Source: Escherichia coli
GTDB taxonomy: Bacteria > Pseudomonadota > Gammaproteobacteria > Enterobacterales > Enterobacteriaceae
DNA length: 50,632 nucleotides
Direction: 5' to 3' (one strand)
NCBI RefSeq assembly: GCF_003334315.1
Contig: NZ_QOWR01000031.1
Shown: positions 41,391 through 50,632 of the stretch, piece by piece
How positions within the stretch are numbered: the stretch's first letter is position 1
Layout: each line of letters begins with the position of its first letter
The notes under the pieces: generated by a model
Databases searched by the model: none
Seen by the model: only the letters and a program-made list of their open reading frames with translations
What the model was told of the DNA's origin: nothing
Program-made: the position numbers and the translations under genes

Positions 41391-43571
41391 TTACTCTTTC
41401 TCGGAGTAACTATAACCGTAATAGTTATAGCCGTAACTGTAAGCGGTGCTGGCGCGTTTAATCACACCATTGAGGATAGCGCCTTTAATATTGACGCCTG
41501 CCTGTTCCAGACGCTGCATTGACAAACTCACCTCTTTGGCGGTGTTCAAGCCAAAACGCGCAACCAGCAGGCTGGTGCCAACAGAACGCCCCACGACCGC
41601 GGCATCACTCACCGCCAGCATCGGCGGCGTATCGACAATCACCAGATCGTAATGGTCGTTCGCCCATTCCAGTAATTGACGCATCCGATCGCGCATCAGC
41701 AGTTCAGACGGGTTAGGTGGCACCTGACCGCGAGTAATCACATCAAAGCCTCCTTTGCCAAAATGCTGGATCACTTTGTTGAGCTCATCTTTACCTGCCA
41801 GATATTCCGACAAGCCATGTTCATTACTCACGGTAAACAGGTTATGCGAATAACCACGGCGTAAGTCGGCATCAATAAATAACACTTTTTGATCGGACTG
41901 GGCGATCACCGCTGCCAGAGTTGAACTGACAAACGTTTTACCACCGTCTGGCGTCGCACCGGTGATCATCAGAATGTTATTCTCCGTCTCCATCATAGCG
42001 AAATGCAGACTGGTTCGTAGCGCACGTACGGCTTCCACAGCAGAATCCGCCGGGTTATCCACCGCCAGGAAGGGGATATTTTTAGTACGATGGCGCTGCT
42101 GATTAGAAAATAAATTTTTCTTACGCAGACGGGTGCGTTTATCCAGCCACTCGGACATTGGGATAGTGGCATAAACGCTGATGCCGTGCTCTTCCAGTTG
42201 TTCCGGTGCTTCTACACCACGACGCAACATCGCACGCGCCAGCACGGCACCCACCGAAATAAACAGGCCAAGAATAAAACCAAGCACCACGTTCAACGCT
42301 TTTTTCGGTTTCACTGGCTGCGGCTGAGTGACTGCCGGGTCGATAATCCGCACGTTACCAATGGCACTGGATTTCGAAATACTCAACTCCTGCTGGCGGT
42401 TAAGTAATTGCAGATATACCGCACGGCCCGCTTCTACGTCACGACTTAAACGCAACACTTCCTGTTGGGTGGAAGGCATAGCCGATACCCGCTTATTCAG
42501 GCGTTTGCGTTCTTGCTCCAGCGTCTGGCGTTTTTCCAGCAGCGCACGATAAGTTGGGTGATCTTTCTTATACAGCTGGGAGATCTCTGCCTCGCGGAAG
42601 GTCAGCTCATTGAGTTGATTATCAACGTTAACAATCTGCTCAAGAACGGCTTTGGCTTCCAGGTTAAGGTCAACCGAATCGCGCTGCTGGCGATAAACGT
42701 TGAGTTTTTCTTCCGCCTGGTCCAGCTCGCTGCGCACTTCAGGCAGCTGGCGCTGTAAGAATTCAAGGCTTTGTGAATCCTGCGCCGCCTGGCGAGCGAT
42801 ATTCTGTTGCAAATAGTTGTTAGCGATGCTGTTCAGAATACGAGTAATCAACTGGGGATCATCACCCGTCATGGTAAGTTCCAGCATCCCGCTTTCTTTA
42901 CTGCGTTCGCTAACGGTAAAGGTTTCCTGCAACGCGTTAATCGCTTCCAGTTCGGTACGCTGGCTCAGGACAAACTGTGTTCCTGGTTTGGCCTTAATAT
43001 CCGCGATAGTCAGCGCAACGCCATCTTTTTCCAGACGCTGGCCGACCATACCATTGACGGTGAACTCTTCACCTTCCAGCGTATAGTGGCCGTTTTCCCC
43101 AACCGTGAGTGTCAGTTGCTGATCCTGACCATTCAGTTGTGGAATATGCATCCAGCTGATCGCCAGCTCACCTGGTTTTTCTTTGGTTAATCTCGCCCAG
43201 CCGCGACCCACAATCGGAAAATACTTCTGCTCAACCATGTCGCGCAGATTCAGTTCAGCAATGGTTTTACCGAGAATCATGCGCGATTGCAGCAGTTGGA
43301 TCTCCGGTGCAGATTCGGGCGATGAGTTAGGGATCATATCGCTCAGGCCGCTGAGAATGGCGTTGCCCTGTTTCTGCTCAACCTGGACCAGAGTATCTGC
43401 CTGATAAATTGGTGTGCTTAACAGCGAGTAAGCGACAGCGATCAGCGTGAATAACGCGGTCACGCTGATAATAAACTTACGGTGATCCCATAACTCGCCG
43501 ACCAGACGAAGCAGATCGATCTCATTTTCCTGAGTGCTGCCTGGTGGCGTATTCATATTTTTAGTTGTCAT
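41391..43571 (-). CDS. etk: BY-kinase (tyrosine autokinase) Etk, Wzc paralogue
   Basis: 726 aa; N-terminal TM/periplasmic/coiled-coil region, cytoplasmic Walker A-like P-loop (GATPDGGKT) and C-terminal tyrosine cluster (YSYGYNYYGYSY). Confidence 0.93.
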   Translation of the reverse strand: MTTKNMNTPPGSTQENEIDLLRLVGELWDHRKFIISVTALFTLIAVAYSLLSTPIYQADTLVQVEQKQGNAILSGLSDMIPNSSPESAPEIQLLQSRMILGKTIAELNLRDMVEQKYFPIVGRGWARLTKEKPGELAISWMHIPQLNGQDQQLTLTVGENGHYTLEGEEFTVNGMVGQRLEKDGVALTIADIKAKPGTQFVLSQRTELEAINALQETFTVSERSKESGMLELTMTGDDPQLITRILNSIANNYLQQNIARQAAQDSQSLEFLQRQLPEVRSELDQAEEKLNVYRQQRDSVDLNLEAKAVLEQIVNVDNQLNELTFREAEISQLYKKDHPTYRALLEKRQTLEQERKRLNKRVSAMPSTQQEVLRLSRDVEAGRAVYLQLLNRQQELSISKSSAIGNVRIIDPAVTQPQPVKPKKALNVVLGFILGLFISVGAVLARAMLRRGVEAPEQLEEHGISVYATIPMSEWLDKRTRLRKKNLFSNQQRHRTKNIPFLAVDNPADSAVEAVRALRTSLHFAMMETENNILMITGATPDGGKTFVSSTLAAVIAQSDQKVLFIDADLRRGYSHNLFTVSNEHGLSEYLAGKDELNKVIQHFGKGGFDVITRGQVPPNPSELLMRDRMRQLLEWANDHYDLVIVDTPPMLAVSDAAVVGRSVGTSLLVARFGLNTAKEVSLSMQRLEQAGVNIKGAILNGVIKRASTAYSYGYNYYGYSYSEKE

Positions 43572-43590: not shown

Positions 43591-44037
43591 TTACCGGCTG
43601 AGGCGCTTCGCCCATTCCTGACTGGCGCGCTCCAACATACCGTAGACATGTTCAAATGCGTCCTGACTTTTACGATAGGGATCCGGGATCTCTTTCTGTT
43701 CCAGCCATTGCCCAAACAGCATTGTCTTCCCGCGGACCTCGGGAGCGATTGCGGTAACCTGAGCAATATGTTCCGACTCCATTGCCAGAATCAGATCGTA
43801 ATTTCGTGCCATCTCAGCAGTGAGCTTACGTCCGGCATGTCCTTCAAGAGATACGCCATGATTAGCGGCAACATCTGCCGCTGTCGCATCTGCAGGGTGT
43901 TTTACCAGACCATGAACACCTGCCGAATTGACTTTTACGCCCGGCAGACGTTTACGCAGCAAGCGCTCGCCAATGGGCGAACGGCAAATGTTGCCGGTAC
44001 AAACCACCAGGATTGAGTTAAATTTTAGTTGGGCCAT
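43591..44037 (-). CDS. etp: Low-molecular-weight protein-tyrosine phosphatase Etp
   Basis: Track ORF trimmed to the ATG at 44037 ([21 protein letters not shown]...): CX5R LMW-PTP active-site loop; 148 aa. Confidence 0.9.
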
Positions 44038-45164
44038 GTTTGAATCCACCGTGAAGTCTCTGTCAGGTCATGCACCCCGGAAATCGTCGGTACCAGCAGA
44101 GAAATCACACGGTTCCAACGAGCCAGCGGCGCGGTAGTGACATAAACAATGTCGTAAGGTTCAAGCTGGAATTCCGTTCCGAGTATCATTGCCGATGCGT
44201 CCTTCGCATTCAGCTGATAAATATTGGCGATTTTGCCATTCTGCTTGTTTTGCGTTGCACGAATAACAAAAATCCCCGTCGCATCAGCGACATCCTGATT
44301 CATACCCTCAGCGTTACCCAGCGCTTCCGCCAGGGTCATACCGCTGCGGTCCATTTTCAGCGTGCTCTGTTTACCCACTTCACCCATCACGAAGACTTTC
44401 AGATCATCGTTGCGCGGAATAAATAAAATATCGCCCGGGTGCAGCAGTTTGTTCTGGCGCAAGTCGCCACGCTGCATCAGCGCATAGAGGTTCACTTTGG
44501 TCTTTACGCCATTCTGGGTGAGCACCACGTTGCGCCAGTCTGCATCTGCGGTCAGACCGCCCGCGGCGTTAATCGCATCCATGATGGTCAGAGGAATATT
44601 GGTAATCGGCTGCTGACCCGATTTGCTGACTTCGCCGGTGACGTACGCTTTTTGCGAGCGGAACGCCGCGACGCTGACATCGACTTGCGGGCTTTCAATG
44701 ACTGAATCCAGACGCGCTGTAATCTCGTTGCGTACCTGGGTAAGTGTTTTCCCGGCCACTTTCAGGCGACCAATATAGGGGTAGAAAATCGCACCATCGG
44801 CGTTAACCCAGTTGCCGGTATCACTGGCGCTACGGTATTGCCCTGCGGGGGTGGTTAGTTCCGGGTGATCCCAGACCGTAACCATCAACACATCACCAAT
44901 GCCGATACGATATTCATAGTTCGCGATTTGCTGCTCCAGCTCCGGGTTAGCCTGCGACATAATCGGTTTGGCGCGCAGCTGATCAATCAATCCTGGCGTG
45001 ACGGGATAGATATTGACCATTTTGTCCAGGTCATACTGATTGTCAGGTAGTTCAATGACATCCTTGTTACTGGTCGATAAATTCTGACCAGGAACAAGGG
45101 TACATGCTGTCAAAGACAGAACAGCCAATGTCAGTACCGAAAACTTAAAAATGTTCTTTTTCAT
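44025..45164 (-). CDS. gfcE: Wza-like outer-membrane polysaccharide export lipoprotein GfcE
   Basis: Track ORF trimmed to the ATG at 45164 ([23 protein letters not shown]... lipobox LTAC); 379 aa; overlaps the etp start by 13 nt. Confidence 0.9.
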
Positions 45165-45209
45165 TGGTTTATATTTATCAGTCAATGTAATGTTATGAAT
45201 TACGTCAGG

Positions 45210-47306
45210 TTATTGTCCAACCGGTACTTCTCGCTCTGCCGTCATTGGATAGAGCTGGTATTTGCGTGACAGCATTTGTCCACCATCACGCGTCAATGGT
45301 GTCCACGAAACCACCGCGCGGTTGCGGTTAGGTCCAATGGTCATCAAGTCGAACGGAATCGAGATATAAAAACCTTTACTAAAGCCGCCTTCGCCGTAGT
45401 CATCTTTAGATACGTTACTGATTGCCGCCCATACCCCTACCGCCACGCCGCTGTCAAAGCGTTTGGCGACATCGATCGTTGCGCCTTTATCTTTTGCCAG
45501 ATATTGCCCAACGCTAAGTTTCATCAGTATGCCATTGAGCGTCGGCGGGTTCCAGTAAGCCGTCACGAAACCAGTTGGCGTGGAATAATCGGTGAAGCGC
45601 ATCATGTTGTCCCAGTCACGCTGCTTCACGTAGTTAACGTCCACACCCAGCGCCCAGCTGGCATCTAGCGGGCGATAAAGCAGCTCGGAACCGACACCGG
45701 CATACATCGTTTCCAGATAACCGCCATACACCTGGCCATAGAAACCATTGCCTAAGTCGGCAAAGTAGTTCGCCTGCAAGTTGTTGAGATAAACGTCATT
45801 GCGAACGTAATCACGGATATGCGTGCGCACGCGGGGCAGGGTAGAGTCCGCGGGTAATAGCGAAGACTTAAACTTGTCGTAGTTATTGTAAATATTGGTG
45901 AAAATACCGCCATCAAGCAGCAGGTGGTCAGTAAACCAGTAGCGGGCGCTGGACATCAGCCCCAACTGGAACATATAGAAATCTTCCGGGCCGCCCAGCG
46001 ATTGTGAAAGTGTTGGGTTGAAAGAGTAGCTAAAGCGATCTTCACGAATACGGTAGCCCCGACCAAAGGCAGAAAGATCTTCTGCTTCAACACGTTGTTG
46101 TTGCAGTTGCTCTGATTTACCAGGCGCTGTACCAGCCAGCTTTTTGCGCAGGCTGGCTACGTCGGTTTCGGTAGTCACCATCGCCATATGCTCGCGCTTT
46201 TGCGTCACGCTAATCTTCTCAACGCCTTGCGGCAGGTTATTCACCAGAATCCGGTTGGCACGATCGACCGCTTCACGAGAGTCACGGTATTTGTATTGCT
46301 GACCAGACATATACAGTGTCTTATCGCGTAGCTGAATTTCTGGCGCGTCAAAGCCCGCGTTATACTTCAGGGCGGTAAGTTGGTTTGCTACCGTGGTGTA
46401 CTGCAATCCTTCAGATTCAGGCGCAGGTTGATATGCCGGTTTTGGCGTATCGCGCAGGGCAGGGCGCAGATCGTTGAAATTGGTCCGTAACGTGAAGCCA
46501 AACATCAACGTGTTACCGCGTTCATAACTCAGGTTGAGATCTGCCCAGCTGGCAGCGCGATAAACTGCGCCGACGTTGAAATGGCTTGCCTGAGGCAGTT
46601 TGCCAGCGAAATCATTCTGGTAATTGTTTCCATCGTATTCGAGTTTCAGACGCAGGGGATTCCACGGCGTTTGATACTCAATGCCGCCAAAGATGGAGGC
46701 TGGGCCACGAAAGATATCGCTAAAGCTGATATCGCCCGCATCGTGAGACTCTGCGCGATGACAATATTTATCGCTCACCCGGCAAAACGGGTTGGTAATA
46801 TTGCCCGCATTACCGGCGTAGCCCCATGCCATCCCGAGGGTGAAATCAAATGGCCCCGCTTGCTTGCTGGCCACCAGATACTCACTGTCAAACCGACCCG
46901 TACCAGCAATATCACGTTTACCAAACGCCACTTGCGGTAGCCAGTAACCTTCTTCCCACAGGCGAAGTTTAAAATCGAATGATTTGTCTTTGTATGACTG
47001 ATCGCCGCTGAAATCTTCCCACTGGCTATATTTGCGTGTGCGCACATCCGTATAACGAATGGTGCCTTCCAGCCATGGGAACAGCGCCACGGAGGTGGAG
47101 TAGAACCGGTATTGATCGTTATCCCGGTAGTTGACGCTGAATTCACCTTCCGGTGCGATGCGCGCATTTGGCATCTGCAACAATCCTGTGCCGCCAAAGT
47201 CCGATTGCGACGAACCCTGCGGATCCGGGTAGGTTAATACTTCAGCATGACAGGCACTGGAGACGGCAATGGCCAGGCAGCTTAAAAGATATGAATTCTT
47301 CTTCAT
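45210..47306 (-). CDS. gfcD: Outer-membrane beta-barrel protein GfcD (YmcA, YjbH family)
   Basis: 698 aa with signal peptide; sequence and position match gfcD. Confidence 0.9.
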
Positions 47307-48052
47307 CAGTCAGGAACACGTTGCGTTAAAACAGACACAATCTGGTCATTTAAATCAGCATATTTTTCGGGCAGTACATGCGCAGAAAAGCCCAACCAAA
47401 GCTGGCTGCCAGGCGGTGGTTCCACATGTCTTTTATTCCACAGGGCAACAGGGGCGACGACAGTCTCACCCTCAGGCGTAATCACCATAACGTTATTCTT
47501 GTCCGCGCCTGCAAGACGGGGGCGATCTTGCAGATAATCGGTAACGCTACGGCCTGCCTGCCAGGGCAATTGCCCAGCCCCAGAAACCGCACCCAGCAGA
47601 GTAATAGTCACCGGACGCTGTACGGTATAGAGCGTATAGTCCCCGACCAGCGGGGGATTGCTGTTCTCATCCACTCGTACAAAATCAGGGTCCAGTTTGA
47701 CCGGTAAGCGACCAGTGATATTGAGATTGAGTAACTGCTGGCGCACGGATTTAATCGTTGCCACCACATCGTCGTCAGCTTCTGCTTCCCAGGAAGCAAG
47801 CTGTGCCATGACATGTTGGTAGTCTTTAAGCGCTTTAGCTTTCGCCGCAGAGTCGGTCAGCAAGGCACCAGGCCACCAGAGGCGATCGCGCAGTTGCGGT
47901 TGTGTCACCAACTGGACAACATTTTCCACGGGGCCAACGGAAAGTGTCTGTTGTTCGCCAGGCAGATAAATAGTCACCGTTCCTTGCGCAAAGGCATGGT
48001 GTGTCATTACGTAAAGTACGCTGGCAATGAAATACGACTGTAATTTATTCAT
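47306..48052 (-). CDS. gfcC: Periplasmic protein GfcC (YmcB)
   Basis: 248 aa with signal peptide; stop overlaps the gfcD start by 1 nt (TGATG). Confidence 0.88.
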
Positions 48053-48693
48053 GGTGCGGGTTTAAGAAACGTCATTTCTACGGGAATAACCCCTGCGCCT
48101 AACATTTGCCGACTTTGACGAACCTGGCCAGTAGCCGAATCGACCCAGAATGTGTTTTGCCACTGTTTTTCTGGCAGCGTGGAAGTCACCTCTTCCTGCC
48201 AGACATTACACAGCACATTGCGACCCGCAATATTCAGCGTCTCTAATCCAGCAAAGGAAAAAGTAGAACTCAGGGTCGCAGAGCGAAAATGGTTGTCTTC
48301 ACTCCAGAGAATATCGCGCGTCCAGCGGCTGCCATCTTTTATTGCCAGCGCGTTACGCAGAGGGTCCTGCCCGGAATTTGTCACTTCCAGCAGATTATTA
48401 TTAAGTTTGACGGTTTTTAAAAGACGTCCATTGTGGGTAACCAGCATGGCGTTATCCTGGGATAACCATTTGCTTTGTTCTTGTTCTATATATCCCAGTA
48501 CCACAAAGATTCGTTGCCCTTCATTAAGGCGTAAATACATCGTGGAATAAGGCAACGCCTGGATCTGCTGATCCGCTACGGTGATATCCTGATTATCGAA
48601 AAGGCTGGCGCGAAATGTATCGACCATACTTTGCTGGCTGTGCGTACATCCCGCAAGAAATAGTGCGAAAATCGATAAAATAAGAGGGCGCAC
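48049..48693 (-). CDS. gfcB: Lipoprotein GfcB (YmcC)
   Basis: 214 aa with lipobox LAGC (MRPLILSIFALFLAGCTHS). Confidence 0.88.
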   Translation of the reverse strand: MRPLILSIFALFLAGCTHSQQSMVDTFRASLFDNQDITVADQQIQALPYSTMYLRLNEGQRIFVVLGYIEQEQSKWLSQDNAMLVTHNGRLLKTVKLNNNLLEVTNSGQDPLRNALAIKDGSRWTRDILWSEDNHFRSATLSSTFSFAGLETLNIAGRNVLCNVWQEEVTSTLPEKQWQNTFWVDSATGQVRQSRQMLGAGVIPVEMTFLKPAP

Positions 48694-48799
48694 CTTTAAT
48701 CCTTGAAAGGTTAATTAAAAAAATGCAAATCTCTAAAGCCCGGTACGAATATCGCAACCGGGTATCATTTAACTTTAATTTCGACGCGTTAAAGCAGTA

Positions 48800-49105
48800 T
48801 TAGTGTGTAGTGGACGTGGTGGTTGAGGTGTTATGAGAACCGCCATCGCCACTGTCATTTGCTGCAACAACTGCCAACGTCGCCACACCAACAGCCGTTG
48901 CCACACCGACAACTGTCGCCGTGCCGACAGCGCCAGCAGCCACGCCACCAGTGGTAGTAGCAGTCGTGGTTGCGCCGGTAGTGGTCGTTGTGGTGCCAGT
49001 AGTACCCGTCGTTGCCTCGGTCCCGTTTGTTGCTTCAGGGGCAGCAAACGCAGCTGGCGTCGTCAACATGAAGGCCATAAGGATTGCAGAAAGCTTGTGT
49101 TTCAT
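48800..49105 (-). CDS. gfcA: Threonine-rich small secreted protein GfcA (YmcD)
   Basis: ATG at 49105 (MKHKLSAILMAFMLTTPAAFA signal peptide) followed by a T/G/A-rich low-complexity region; 101 aa. Confidence 0.85.
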   Translation of the reverse strand: MKHKLSAILMAFMLTTPAAFAAPEATNGTEATTGTTGTTTTTTGATTTATTTGGVAAGAVGTATVVGVATAVGVATLAVVAANDSGDGGSHNTSTTTSTTH

Positions 49106-49546
49106 AACTTTTCCTTTATTCATCGCATGGACAATACGTACGCTTGAGATCAAGATTGTCTACTTTGAGTATAACATCCTTGTGAAATCTCCCTTTCCTC
49201 ATACCGCTTGCACTATATACTGCGGGTAGGAAAGGCGCGCAGAGGGAAATATAAGATTGTTAACTATCCCCCTCTGGAAATACGACTTGTGAGCATAAGA
49301 TAAATCTTAGCAAAATACAAATTAAAGATAAGGAAATTGTTACGAAAGCTATTAATTATTGTTGGTAATATAGTTTCAAGTGGTACTATAACTGGCTGTT
49401 AAATGGCATTTATAACTATTAGGTGCAGAGATATTCGCTTAAATGGATTAGTTTCTTTGTGGAAAAGTAACTGATGTTATAATGTATGATGTTGACTATT
49501 GCACTATTCCAATAAAACCAGTCAGCTTTAAACAAGCAGCGTCATA
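49106..49546 (-). promoter_or_regulatory. AT-rich gfc operon upstream/promoter region, uninterrupted by IS
   Basis: 441 bp AT-rich intergenic region between the gfcA start and cspH stop with no IS1 sequence (no IS1 inverted repeats or insA/insB reading frames). The promoter itself is not mapped. Confidence 0.5.
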
Positions 49547-49759: not shown

Positions 49760-50044
49760 ACAAATTCCTTACTGAAAATACTGCGCTGCACTATACGGGG
49801 TTAATAAAATAAAGCCAGCGATATTTAAGACCGCCGGACGGCTAAAATAAAATTTGCTTAATCTCAATTATCATGCGTTAATAGCTGCGTCGGTTTGAAA
49901 GACAGACAGCATACAAAGTAGTTTACTAAAGCAGTTCTCATTATCAGGCATTATCCCCTTCTTTTGAGTCTCTCTCCTGAACACTAAGTAGTTTCTGTAT
50001 TAAAGCCCTGTTTGCCGAAAGGCCCAAAATGAAGGAAGTAAAAT

Positions 50045-50179
50045 ATGTCTAATAAAATGACTGGTTTAGTAAAATGGTTTAACGCAGATAAAGGTTTTGG
50101 CTTTATCACTCCTGATGATGGCAGCAAAGACGTTTTCGTCCATTTCACTGCCATCCAGAGCAATGAATTCCGCACGCTG
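50045..50179 (+). pseudogene. cspG: Cold-shock protein CspG, N-terminal 45 codons only; truncated by IS1 at 50179/50180
   Basis: Translation [45 protein letters not shown] matches the CspG N-terminus (RNP1 KGFGFI, RNP2 VFVHF). The reading frame then runs into the IS1 inverted repeat (track ORF 50045..50260); the expected C-terminal ~25 aa are missing. Confidence 0.88.
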
Positions 50180-50632
50180 GGTAATGACTCCAACTTATTG
50201 ATAGTGTTTTATGTTCAGATAATGCCCGATGACTTTGTCATGCAGCTCCACCGATTTTGAGAACGACAGCGACTTCCGTCCCAGCCGTGCCAGGTGCTGC
50301 CTCAGATTCAGGTTATGCCGCTCAATTCGCTGCGTATATCGCTTGCTGATTACGTGCAGCTTTCCCTTCAGGCGGGATTCATACAGCGGCCAGCCATCCG
50401 TCATCCATATCACCACGTCAAAGGGTGACAGCAGGCTCATAAGACGCCCCAGCGTCGCCATAGTGCGTTCACCGAATACGTGCGCAACAACCGTCTTCCG
50501 GAGACTGTCATACGCGTAAAACAGCCAGCGCTGGCGCGATTTAGCCCCGACATAGCCCCACTGTTCGTCCATTTCCGCGCAGACGATGACGTCACTGCCC
50601 GGCTGTATGCGCGAGGTTACCGACTGCGGCCT
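50180..50632 (-). mobile_element. IS1 insertion sequence, partial (IRR-proximal 453 bp; rest lies right of the window)
   Basis: 50180 onward reads GGTAATGACTCCAACTTATTGATAGTG..., the reverse complement of the IS1 right end as I recall it, continuing as antisense insB to the window edge. Confidence 0.93.
50195..50632 (-). CDS. insB: IS1 transposase InsB region (C-terminal part; 5' end beyond window)
   Basis: Minus-strand translation ...[68 protein letters not shown]...[15 protein letters not shown] with stop at 50195..50197. Confidence 0.92.

Follow-up and report, generated by a model that had tools for sequence, protein, structure and literature searches.

The systems described so far that lie closest to the locus reported here are the group 4 capsule genes gfcABCD and the yjbEFGH genes, which are regarded as paralogous sets (PMC8592465, PMC11494523, PMC9603273). 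Strains that lose any one of the gfc genes no longer show the capsule phenotype (PMC8592465); in EPEC, deletion of gfcA leaves the cells without a capsule, a defect that a gfcA plasmid complements in trans, and gfcA was the most highly expressed among the surface-structure genes tested (PMC3853201). EPEC/EHEC and Shigella sonnei need gfcA to form their O-antigen capsule, which makes it a gene of some interest. Its product has been described as a 101-residue protein of about 30% Thr, the gene as one that "may encode an inner membrane or secreted protein", and modification of GfcA by O-antigen has been proposed (Larson et al. 2021, PMC8592465); in the words of a 2024 paper, the protein was still "entirely uncharacterized" (PMC11494523). 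On the location of GfcA, the literature speaks only of ‘predicted’ or ‘may encode’, and localisation data were not found there (PMC8592465, PMC11494523). For the paralogous operon, yjbE mRNA has been reported to exceed yjbFGH mRNA (PMC8208086). The Thr richness, the annotation, the capsule requirement and the idea of O-antigen modification are thus already known. The present analysis adds a three-module anatomy, with an invariant 30-residue segment and a Thr tract that is free in length, a transitive link between GfcA and the Pfam family YjbE, and a recurrent hairpin after the small gene; it also raises doubts about the ‘inner membrane’ label, founded on an acidic tail and on a paralogue without a segment of transmembrane length.

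The window, the whole stretch of 50,632 nucleotides of Escherichia coli DNA that was analysed (GCF_003334315.1, contig NZ_QOWR01000031.1), carries on its minus strand an open reading frame (Table 1) that translates to MKHKLSAILMAFMLTTPAAFAAPEATNGTEATTGTTGTTTTTTGATTTATTTGGVAAGAVGTATVVGVATAVGVATLAVVAANDSGDGGSHNTSTTTSTTH*, a protein of 101 aa identical to the one quoted in the initial annotation. The name gfcA given there is right, since near-identical DNA is annotated gfcA and the operon neighbours agree. The coding sequence with 20 nt on either side (346 nt) is 99.7% identical to K-12 (b0987), as is also found with a 601-nt query, and the product is 101 aa in both. Downstream of it on the minus strand lie gfcB (48049-48693), gfcC (47306-48052) and gfcD (45210-47306), together with ORFs at 44025-45185, 43591-44049 and 41391-43571 whose sizes are compatible with gfcE, etp and etk; the upstream neighbour is cspH, and the IS1 found between gfcA and cspH in K-12 is missing from the window. 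Sequence and neighbourhood identify the ORF as gfcA (formerly ymcD), which opens gfcABCDE-etp-etk, the operon of the group 4 (O-antigen) capsule. On E. coli DNA of 99.7-100% identity, in thousands of genomes, the RefSeq product name is "threonine-rich inner membrane protein GfcA".

The window allele differs from the EHEC and EPEC alleles by 3-5 aa, with T26, T50 and H101 in place of the A26, A50 and R101 of the alleles compared; residue 101 is Arg in all other E. coli alleles examined and in other genera. An alternative in-frame ATG lies 18 nt further upstream (MNKGKV...) and has no Shine-Dalgarno-like motif, and the orthologues of other genera begin MKK or MKR. Further ORFs overlie gfcA, on the plus strand at 48833-49147 and 48921-49229 and in the -1 frame at 48775-49047; we set these aside as by-products of stop-poor low-complexity DNA.

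As the initial annotation had stated, a signal peptide is followed by a low-complexity T/G/A/V product. These four residues make up 81% of the 80 residues beyond the predicted A-F-A cleavage site, and the 101-residue protein holds 30 T, 20 A, 13 G and 9 V. Measured against the 77 ATG-initiated ORFs of 80 aa or more that the window contains, the gfcA ORF is an extreme outlier: its Thr fraction is 0.28 (median 0.056) and its sequence entropy 3.22 bits (median 4.03). The low-complexity region is not homogeneous; it consists of three modules, namely a Thr tract, a hydrophobic Gly/Ala/Val segment that is partly made of three imperfect 18-nt (VGxATx) units, and a polar tail which, in the window allele, contains two Asp and neither Lys nor Arg.

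Table 1. Features of gfcA and of the gfcA-gfcB spacer, in positions of the window.
Feature	Position	Strand	Basis
gfcA (ymcD) CDS, 101 codons + TAA stop	48800..49105	-	ORF, translation, RefSeq annotation of near-identical DNA
Shine-Dalgarno-like AAGGA, 6 nt 5' of ATG	49112..49116	-	read from sequence
Predicted Sec signal peptide, codons 1-21, MKHKLSAILMAFMLTTPAAFA, putative cleavage A-F-A↓AP	49043..49105	-	basic n-region, hydrophobic core, AxA
Thr tract, codons 22-52, Thr 18/31	48950..49042	-	composition
Indel hot spot within Thr tract	48971..49004	-	DNA alignment with L001 and L002
Hydrophobic Gly/Ala/Val segment, codons 53-82, GGVAAGAVGTATVVGVATAVGVATLAVVAA	48860..48949	-	hydropathy, repeat family
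Polar C-terminal tail, codons 83-101, NDSGDGGSHNTSTTTSTTH	48803..48859	-	acidic/Gly motif + Thr runs
Hairpin in gfcA-gfcB spacer, CCCGGUUGCGAUAUUCGUACCGGG	48739..48762	-	RNA folding

This anatomy bears on the description of the product as mucin-like in the initial annotation, which suits the Thr tract (codons 22-52) and the short runs of Thr in the tail and fails for codons 53-82, with their hydrophobic Gly/Ala/Val composition. With the mucin-like, Ser/Thr-rich, O-glycosylated regions known from eukaryotic and bacterial proteins, such as the streptococcal S/T-rich IDRs (PMC12041528), GfcA shares a predicted extracytoplasmic position, probable disorder and a predominance of Thr. It departs from them in that its tract is only 31 aa long and has no associated glycosyltransferase; nor does the tract show the Pro/Thr/Ser-rich tandem repeat units of mucins, as it has a single Pro and no repeat unit.

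To place the three modules in a wider context, we compared GfcA with related proteins of other genera. No significant family emerged when GfcA was scanned against Pfam and NCBIfam, and a search of PDB sequences with a GfcA profile returned nothing at E <= 1. The exact GfcA and YjbE sequences are absent from a 15-billion-protein collection; a word-indexed homologue search retrieved mostly frameshifted or truncated E. coli versions, along with E. albertii. An exhaustive search with the GfcA profile yielded 14 matches among 1.84 billion representative proteins, which makes the GfcA type a very narrow family. A genome scan with a GfcB/YjbF alignment gave 21 loci, and in 21 of the 21 a small ORF encoding a signal peptide and a low-complexity region lies directly upstream. 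The same small upstream ORF is present in six further gfc-type operons, five of them reached through GfcD homologues (in Citrobacter freundii, Enterobacter hormaechei, Scandinavium, Klebsiella sp. and Superficieibacter) and the sixth, L031, a metagenomic locus, from P0031, a protein of the GfcA type. Such a small gene is thus placed immediately upstream of YjbF/YjbG/YjbH-family genes in the window and in 27 of the 27 related loci examined.

Conservation is distributed unevenly over the modules. The hydrophobic segment is exactly 30 aa long in all 11 GfcA-type sequences tabulated, and 10 of its 30 positions, GGxAxGAxG included, are invariant in nine orthologues. The tail measures 17-20 aa in the 11 sequences and bears a terminal Thr run, with (A/V/S)-T-R after it in most cases; GfcA-type proteins of other genera keep the motif (N/S/T)D..D(G)S...T-run...T(R). 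The N-terminal tract spans about 7-37 aa across the same 11 sequences, with about 7 aa in Superficieibacter, 15-16 aa in Citrobacter, Scandinavium and Enterobacter sp., 23 aa in E. albertii, 28 aa in E. hormaechei and 31 aa in E. coli; across genera, the E. coli tract is the longest and the richest in Thr. Set against the fixed 30-aa segment and the 17-20-aa tail, the variable tract indicates that the Thr region is a free module and that the other two are constrained. Length therefore does vary between genera, unlike among E. coli strains.

Is GfcA a member of the YjbE family? In direct comparisons, the Pfam YjbE model PF11106, which matches seven YjbE-type members of the same alignment, gave no match to GfcA at E <= 10; BLASTP of GfcA against YjbE returned no alignment; hhalign of GfcA-type against YjbE-type profiles aligned the signal peptide only; and a Smith-Waterman comparison gave z = 2.3, its score being reached by 76 of 3000 shuffles. 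The connection comes through P0031, an intermediate of 86 aa encoded within a complete gfcABCDE-etp-etk-like operon. P0031 matches the GfcA-type profile at E = 2.7e-8 (positions 1-99) and PF11106 at E = 5.7e-5 over the full length of the model (1-79 of 79 positions), and so ties GfcA transitively to YjbE. YjbE also occupies the position of GfcA, 5' of the paralogous B/C/D genes, and the two proteins have in common an AxA↓AP signal peptide (AWA↓AP in YjbE), a low-complexity middle, an AVGVA-LA hydrophobic core, a GDG(S) motif and a C-terminal Thr run, the YjbE counterpart of the GfcA tail motif being GGGDGSNTGTTTTTTT. They differ in that the middle region is Ser/Ala-rich in YjbE and Thr-rich in GfcA, and in that the hydrophobic stretch of YjbE is about 11 aa long (Kyte-Doolittle 1.24) as opposed to 30 aa in GfcA; the yjbEFGH genes, moreover, have no linked wza/wzb/wzc genes. 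From these sequence relationships, GfcA is probably best classed as a divergent member of the YjbE family that escapes the present HMMs, and because they miss it, PGAP names close alleles, including the exact allele of the window (WP_001424190.1), "hypothetical protein".

The invariant segment is the natural candidate for a membrane association. The 19-residue Kyte-Doolittle mean of codons 53-82 is 2.16, and the usual threshold for a transmembrane helix on a 19-residue window is 1.6. Summed on the Hessa scale, the energy of the segment is +0.98 kcal/mol, which is marginal. An AlphaFold model of GfcA alone, built on a 15-sequence alignment, has no helix in the hydrophobic segment; at a mean pLDDT of 41.5 this model is not interpretable. 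A positive-inside bias is likewise missing from the tail, in which the two Asp of the window allele are unaccompanied by Lys or Arg and other alleles have one terminal Arg; an acidic tail without Lys/Arg runs contrary to the positive-inside rule for an N-out/C-in inner-membrane anchor. In addition, the stretch of about 11 residues in YjbE is too short for a transmembrane helix, so that membrane anchoring would not be family-wide. The RefSeq "inner membrane protein" label, whose basis is hydropathy alone, should be read with caution.

Small envelope proteins of the glycine-zipper type, for example SlyB, offer a comparison, as they are, like GfcA, small and exported and have a Gly/Ala-rich hydrophobic segment. 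GfcA also bears a GxxxGxxG pattern (G54, G58, G61). The Gly-zipper_Omp, Gly-zipper_YMGG and Rick_17kDa_Anti models (PF13488, PF13441 and PF05433) gave no match to GfcA at E <= 10, and GfcA, lacking a lipobox Cys, is no lipoprotein.

A hint on stoichiometry comes from the hairpin that follows the small gene. The hairpin between gfcA and gfcB has a folding energy of -14.2 kcal/mol (z = -2.6, folded as RNA) and is conserved in Escherichia. It fails a simple terminator consensus, scanning the surroundings of gfcA for promoter and terminator consensus sequences gave no sites, and folding of the whole gfcA-gfcB spacer against shuffles was not significant (z = -1.1). Unrelated hairpins or terminator-like structures stand in the equivalent place in Enterobacter sp., after K-12 yjbE, in Mixta and in Arsukibacterium. 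The occurrence of a hairpin or terminator-like structure after the small gene in five unrelated lineages, combined with the reported abundance of gfcA and yjbE transcripts, suggests a stoichiometric and not a catalytic role.

Taken together, these observations lead us to a model for GfcA. The product bears the hallmarks of a Sec-exported peptide and contains no domain resembling an enzyme. GfcA would be exported by way of its cleavable Sec signal peptide and act as a small, non-enzymatic envelope protein. Its Thr/Ala/Gly-rich tract, probably disordered, in line with the low AlphaFold pLDDT of GfcA alone (41.5) and of GfcA fused to GfcD (about 20), and loosely constrained in length, would serve as a hydrophilic periplasmic spacer; the invariant 30-residue Gly/Ala/Val segment would most likely keep GfcA within or attached to a membrane; and the C-terminus would consist of a conserved acidic/Gly motif with Thr runs behind it. 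The protein may then work stoichiometrically with the GfcB/C/D outer-membrane module in capsule assembly or retention, a role that is proposed because gfcA and yjbE transcripts are reportedly abundant and because of the hairpin after the small gene. We regard the model as a whole, that of an exported, membrane-held member of the YjbE family with a Thr spacer and a stoichiometric part in capsule formation alongside GfcB/C/D, as somewhat better than an even bet.

A second reading makes GfcA the carrier or anchor of the capsule itself. The exported protein would be O-glycosylated on Thr, possibly with O-antigen, would be passed by GfcB and GfcC to the two-barrel protein GfcD, and would anchor the capsule at the surface. 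The published proposal of O-antigen modification (PMC8592465) is of this kind, as is the O-glycosylation-like modification for which the initial annotation named the region a candidate, and the Thr-rich segments are predicted to be periplasmic. Some capsule is left in a waaL mutant (PMC3853201). The N-terminal barrel of GfcD is similar to the amyloid exporter FapF (PMC9603273), the Thr run of the tail is common to YjbE and distant homologues, and the small gene is apparently produced in excess. Counting against the reading, the operon includes neither a glycosyltransferase nor an oligosaccharyltransferase gene, the N-terminal tract of several genera with complete operons has only 4-6 Thr, and a search of the literature turned up no mass-spectrometric or blotting evidence. 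We also modelled GfcD joined through (GGGGS)8 to mature GfcA with AlphaFold (17 paired and 58 unpaired alignment rows). GfcD was predicted at pLDDT 80-95 and GfcA at about 20, with no secondary structure and no sign of docking, as judged from pLDDT and DSSP of a fused chain with shallow pairing; the model thus lends the carrier role no support but does not refute it. On balance we hold a glycosylated carrier to be unlikely.

A related proposal extends to both paralogues. The GfcA and YjbE peptides would be the cargo or anchor of the GfcB/C/D (YjbF/G/H) outer-membrane module rather than accessory membrane proteins, with their short conserved hydrophobic core inserted or retained at the outer membrane and the conserved C-terminal Thr run carrying or binding polysaccharide; the expanded N-terminal Thr tract of Escherichia would, on this proposal, hold polysaccharide as well. 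If true, it would mean that the capsule is protein-anchored rather than lipid-anchored. We consider it quite unlikely.

Another reading is that of a β-rich protein, in which GfcA would be a secreted amyloid- or silk-like subunit whose Gly/Ala/Val/Thr strands are exported through the GfcD barrels or complement them. In the 30-residue segments of Escherichia, β-branched and small residues alternate with period 2 (a fraction of 0.012-0.059 of shuffles reach the observed power), and the low-confidence AlphaFold model of GfcA contains a weak β hairpin. The 11-residue stretch of YjbE would suffice for a membrane-spanning strand, as it would not for a helix, and the C-terminal barrel of GfcD is odd, with 13 strands and a lateral opening (PMC11494523), in a protein that has FapF-like features (PMC9603273). 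Period 2 is not conserved in the segments of other genera, however, where the shuffle fraction lies above 0.2, and across orthologues the periodicity analysis of the 30-residue segment gave no conserved α or β signature. The GfcD fusion, moreover, shows neither strands in GfcA nor a gain in confidence, and the all-polar tail could not face lipid. A β-rich subunit thus appears very improbable.

Less probable still is that gfcA is a leader ORF or RNA element without a functional protein, whose transcription or translation only regulates gfcBCDE. The hairpin directly 3' of gfcA, the low-complexity product without a confident fold and the lack of any Pfam or NCBIfam model matching GfcA would be in keeping with such an element. 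Complementation from a plasmid nevertheless works in trans (PMC3853201), conservation across genera extends to signal peptide, 30-aa segment and tail motif though the DNA has diverged, every indel is a multiple of three, and a good Shine-Dalgarno sequence is present.

We finally queried how the repetitive DNA of gfcA behaves within E. coli. The initial annotation had described this DNA as imperfectly repetitive, and it is: TRF reports one weak array of 21 nt x 2.3 copies with 74% matches (48956-49003), and a repeat finder delineates a family of three 18-nt copies at 72-83% identity (48878-48931). The longest exact direct repeat within the coding sequence measures 8 nt, and the 30 Thr residues are encoded by a mixture of all four codons (10 ACG, 9 ACC, 7 ACT, 4 ACA). 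Runs of 1-3-nt units, which the repeat tool does not report, were not seen by eye in the sequence, and gfcA has no perfect homopolymer or short tandem tract of the kind found in contingency loci.

The coding sequence with 20 nt on either side is present in 3,608 of 5,426 complete E. coli genomes, at identities of at least 99% in 2,511 copies, 95-99% in 1,074 and 90-95% in 23. In a sample evenly spaced down the ranking, 58 of 59 full-length copies match the query in length and one is 18 nt longer; a second sample, drawn with the 601-nt query, was of equal length save for the upstream IS1 of the K-12 type, one 1-nt difference and one 15-nt deletion. The longer allele (L001, strain F9792) is a perfect in-frame tandem duplication of TACTACTGGCACCACAAC (48987-49004) and encodes 107 aa. 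The shorter allele (L002, isolate GPT21-003) has lost 48971-48985 between ACCAC microhomologies, also in frame, and encodes 96 aa. The hot spot that holds both changes overlaps the sole TRF array. Used as queries, the longer allele is found at 100% identity in five clonal genomes, all of the O169:H41 ETEC type, and the shorter in two genomes, which puts such variants well under 1% of gfcA carriers; this tally draws on sampled rows and identity bands and leaves out 16 other low-identity records.

GfcA length is therefore nearly fixed in E. coli, and the length polymorphism between strains for which the initial annotation had named the region a candidate is very rare, with 58 of 59 copies equal and variants in five and two of about 3,600 genomes. 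The same annotation had held that identical length and sequence across diverse strains would refute its proposal; length is indeed nearly identical, and sequence is not, as 30% of the copies are 95-99% identical. Substitutions between E. coli alleles are mainly exchanges of T and A inside the Thr tract, and also affect the last residue; the tract is the fastest-evolving module. The low-complexity DNA would thus evolve through exchange of T and A and, from time to time, through slippage or duplication that keeps the frame, without acting as a switch. The judgement of the initial annotation that slipped-strand phase variation is unsupported holds, given exact repeats of no more than 8 nt, mixed Thr codons and two length variants that are both in frame. 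That gfcA is a contingency locus, in which repetitive DNA would serve as an on/off switch of the gene and with it of the capsule, or make an exposed epitope differ from strain to strain, is close to refuted: two in-frame length variants have arisen in the Thr tract by tandem duplication or microhomology deletion, public assemblies hold several frameshifted gfcA products and gfcA mutations are reported in gut adaptation (bioRxiv 10.64898/2026.05.27.728231), but the exact repeats are short and the Thr codons mixed, the frequent length change between close strains that marks contingency loci is not seen among the 59 sampled copies, the variants are restricted to five and two genomes, and on/off variation across E. 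coli stems from IS insertions and deletions instead.

Presence or absence of gfcA is a far larger polymorphism than its length. About 1,700 genomes lack the whole region and 3,708 carry gfcB-gfcC, so that about 100 genomes retain gfcBC without gfcA; an IS5 insertion-deletion (L003) provides one example.

A stable hairpin or terminator-like structure lies 3' of the small gene that precedes gfcB/yjbF-type genes, whether this gene is gfcA or resembles its paralogue yjbE, in five lineages, the Escherichia window, an Enterobacter sp., K-12 yjbE, Mixta and Arsukibacterium; the hairpin sequences are unrelated. Such a hairpin may account for the reports that yjbE and gfcA mRNA is more abundant than that of the downstream genes.

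In Arsukibacterium and related Gammaproteobacteria (loci L022–L025), a small protein is encoded about 150–530 nt upstream of the gfcB homologue. It is longer, at 105–129 aa, with a hydrophobic core (AAAVGV..AAAIISNNSG) that is followed by a poly-Pro linker, except in L024, which is without the linker. Next comes a loop of the form Cys-x(9-10)-Cys, and the protein ends in a tail with alternating residues, TVTVTGTGTGT...VTFTYAP. It is a different elaboration at the same gene position as the gfcA/yjbE-type gene.

Among E. coli genomes, gfcA can be lost with gfcB, gfcC and gfcD retained, as observed for NZ_LR536431.1 and about 100 others; in NZ_LR536431.1, IS5 occupies the gfcA site, and just 58 nt of the gfcA 3' end are left. 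The whole gfcABC region is missing from about 1,700 of the 5,426 genomes.

K-12 and strain SW071610, the latter with the same gfcA allele as the window, carry IS1 just upstream of the gfcA start, whereas IS1 is absent from the gfcA–cspH intergenic region of the window; this strain may thus have an undamaged gfc promoter region. Codon 101 of the window allele encodes His, while GfcA ends in Arg in every other allele examined, both within E. coli (EHEC, EPEC and others) and in other genera. His101 is perhaps a rare substitution of a basic residue that is conserved at the C-terminus.

Querying protein collections returned several public 'proteins' (P0008, P0011, P0015 and P0028) in which the GfcA N-terminus is joined to a –1-frame reading (…QRLLVWRRWQLLQQMTVAMAVLITPQPPRPLH…); they represent either gfcA copies with a frameshift or errors of assembly. 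The exact GfcA and YjbE sequences were not found in a 15-billion-protein collection.

At the end of the window, cspG is broken after codon 45. Intact cspG is identical to the window sequence as far as 50179, downstream of which an IS1 end (GGTAATGACTCCAACTTATTGATAG...) possessing an insB fragment continues to the window end. No complete E. coli genome of the collection contained the cspG/IS1 junction as a single contiguous match. The Rfam cspA thermoregulator match (RF01766; 116.6 bits, E = 1.5e-30) spans the 5' UTR of cspG together with the first part of its coding sequence, and the 3' end of the match reaches into the IS1 insertion.

Coordinates of features in the window and in related loci (L handles)
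Feature	Location	Strand
Hairpin/terminator-like structure after gfcA	window 48739-48762	minus
Hairpin/terminator-like structures after the small gene	L007:2889-2911; L004:717-740; L008:2899-2927; L022:2868-2894	
–1-frame reading of gfcA	window 48775-49047	minus
GfcA codon 101	window 48803-48805	
gfcA–cspH intergenic region	window 49106-49546	
cspA thermoregulator (RF01766)	window 49889-50209	plus
Broken cspG with the IS1 end	window 50045-50632	
IS1 end	window 50180 to window end	
insB fragment	window 50195-50572	minus
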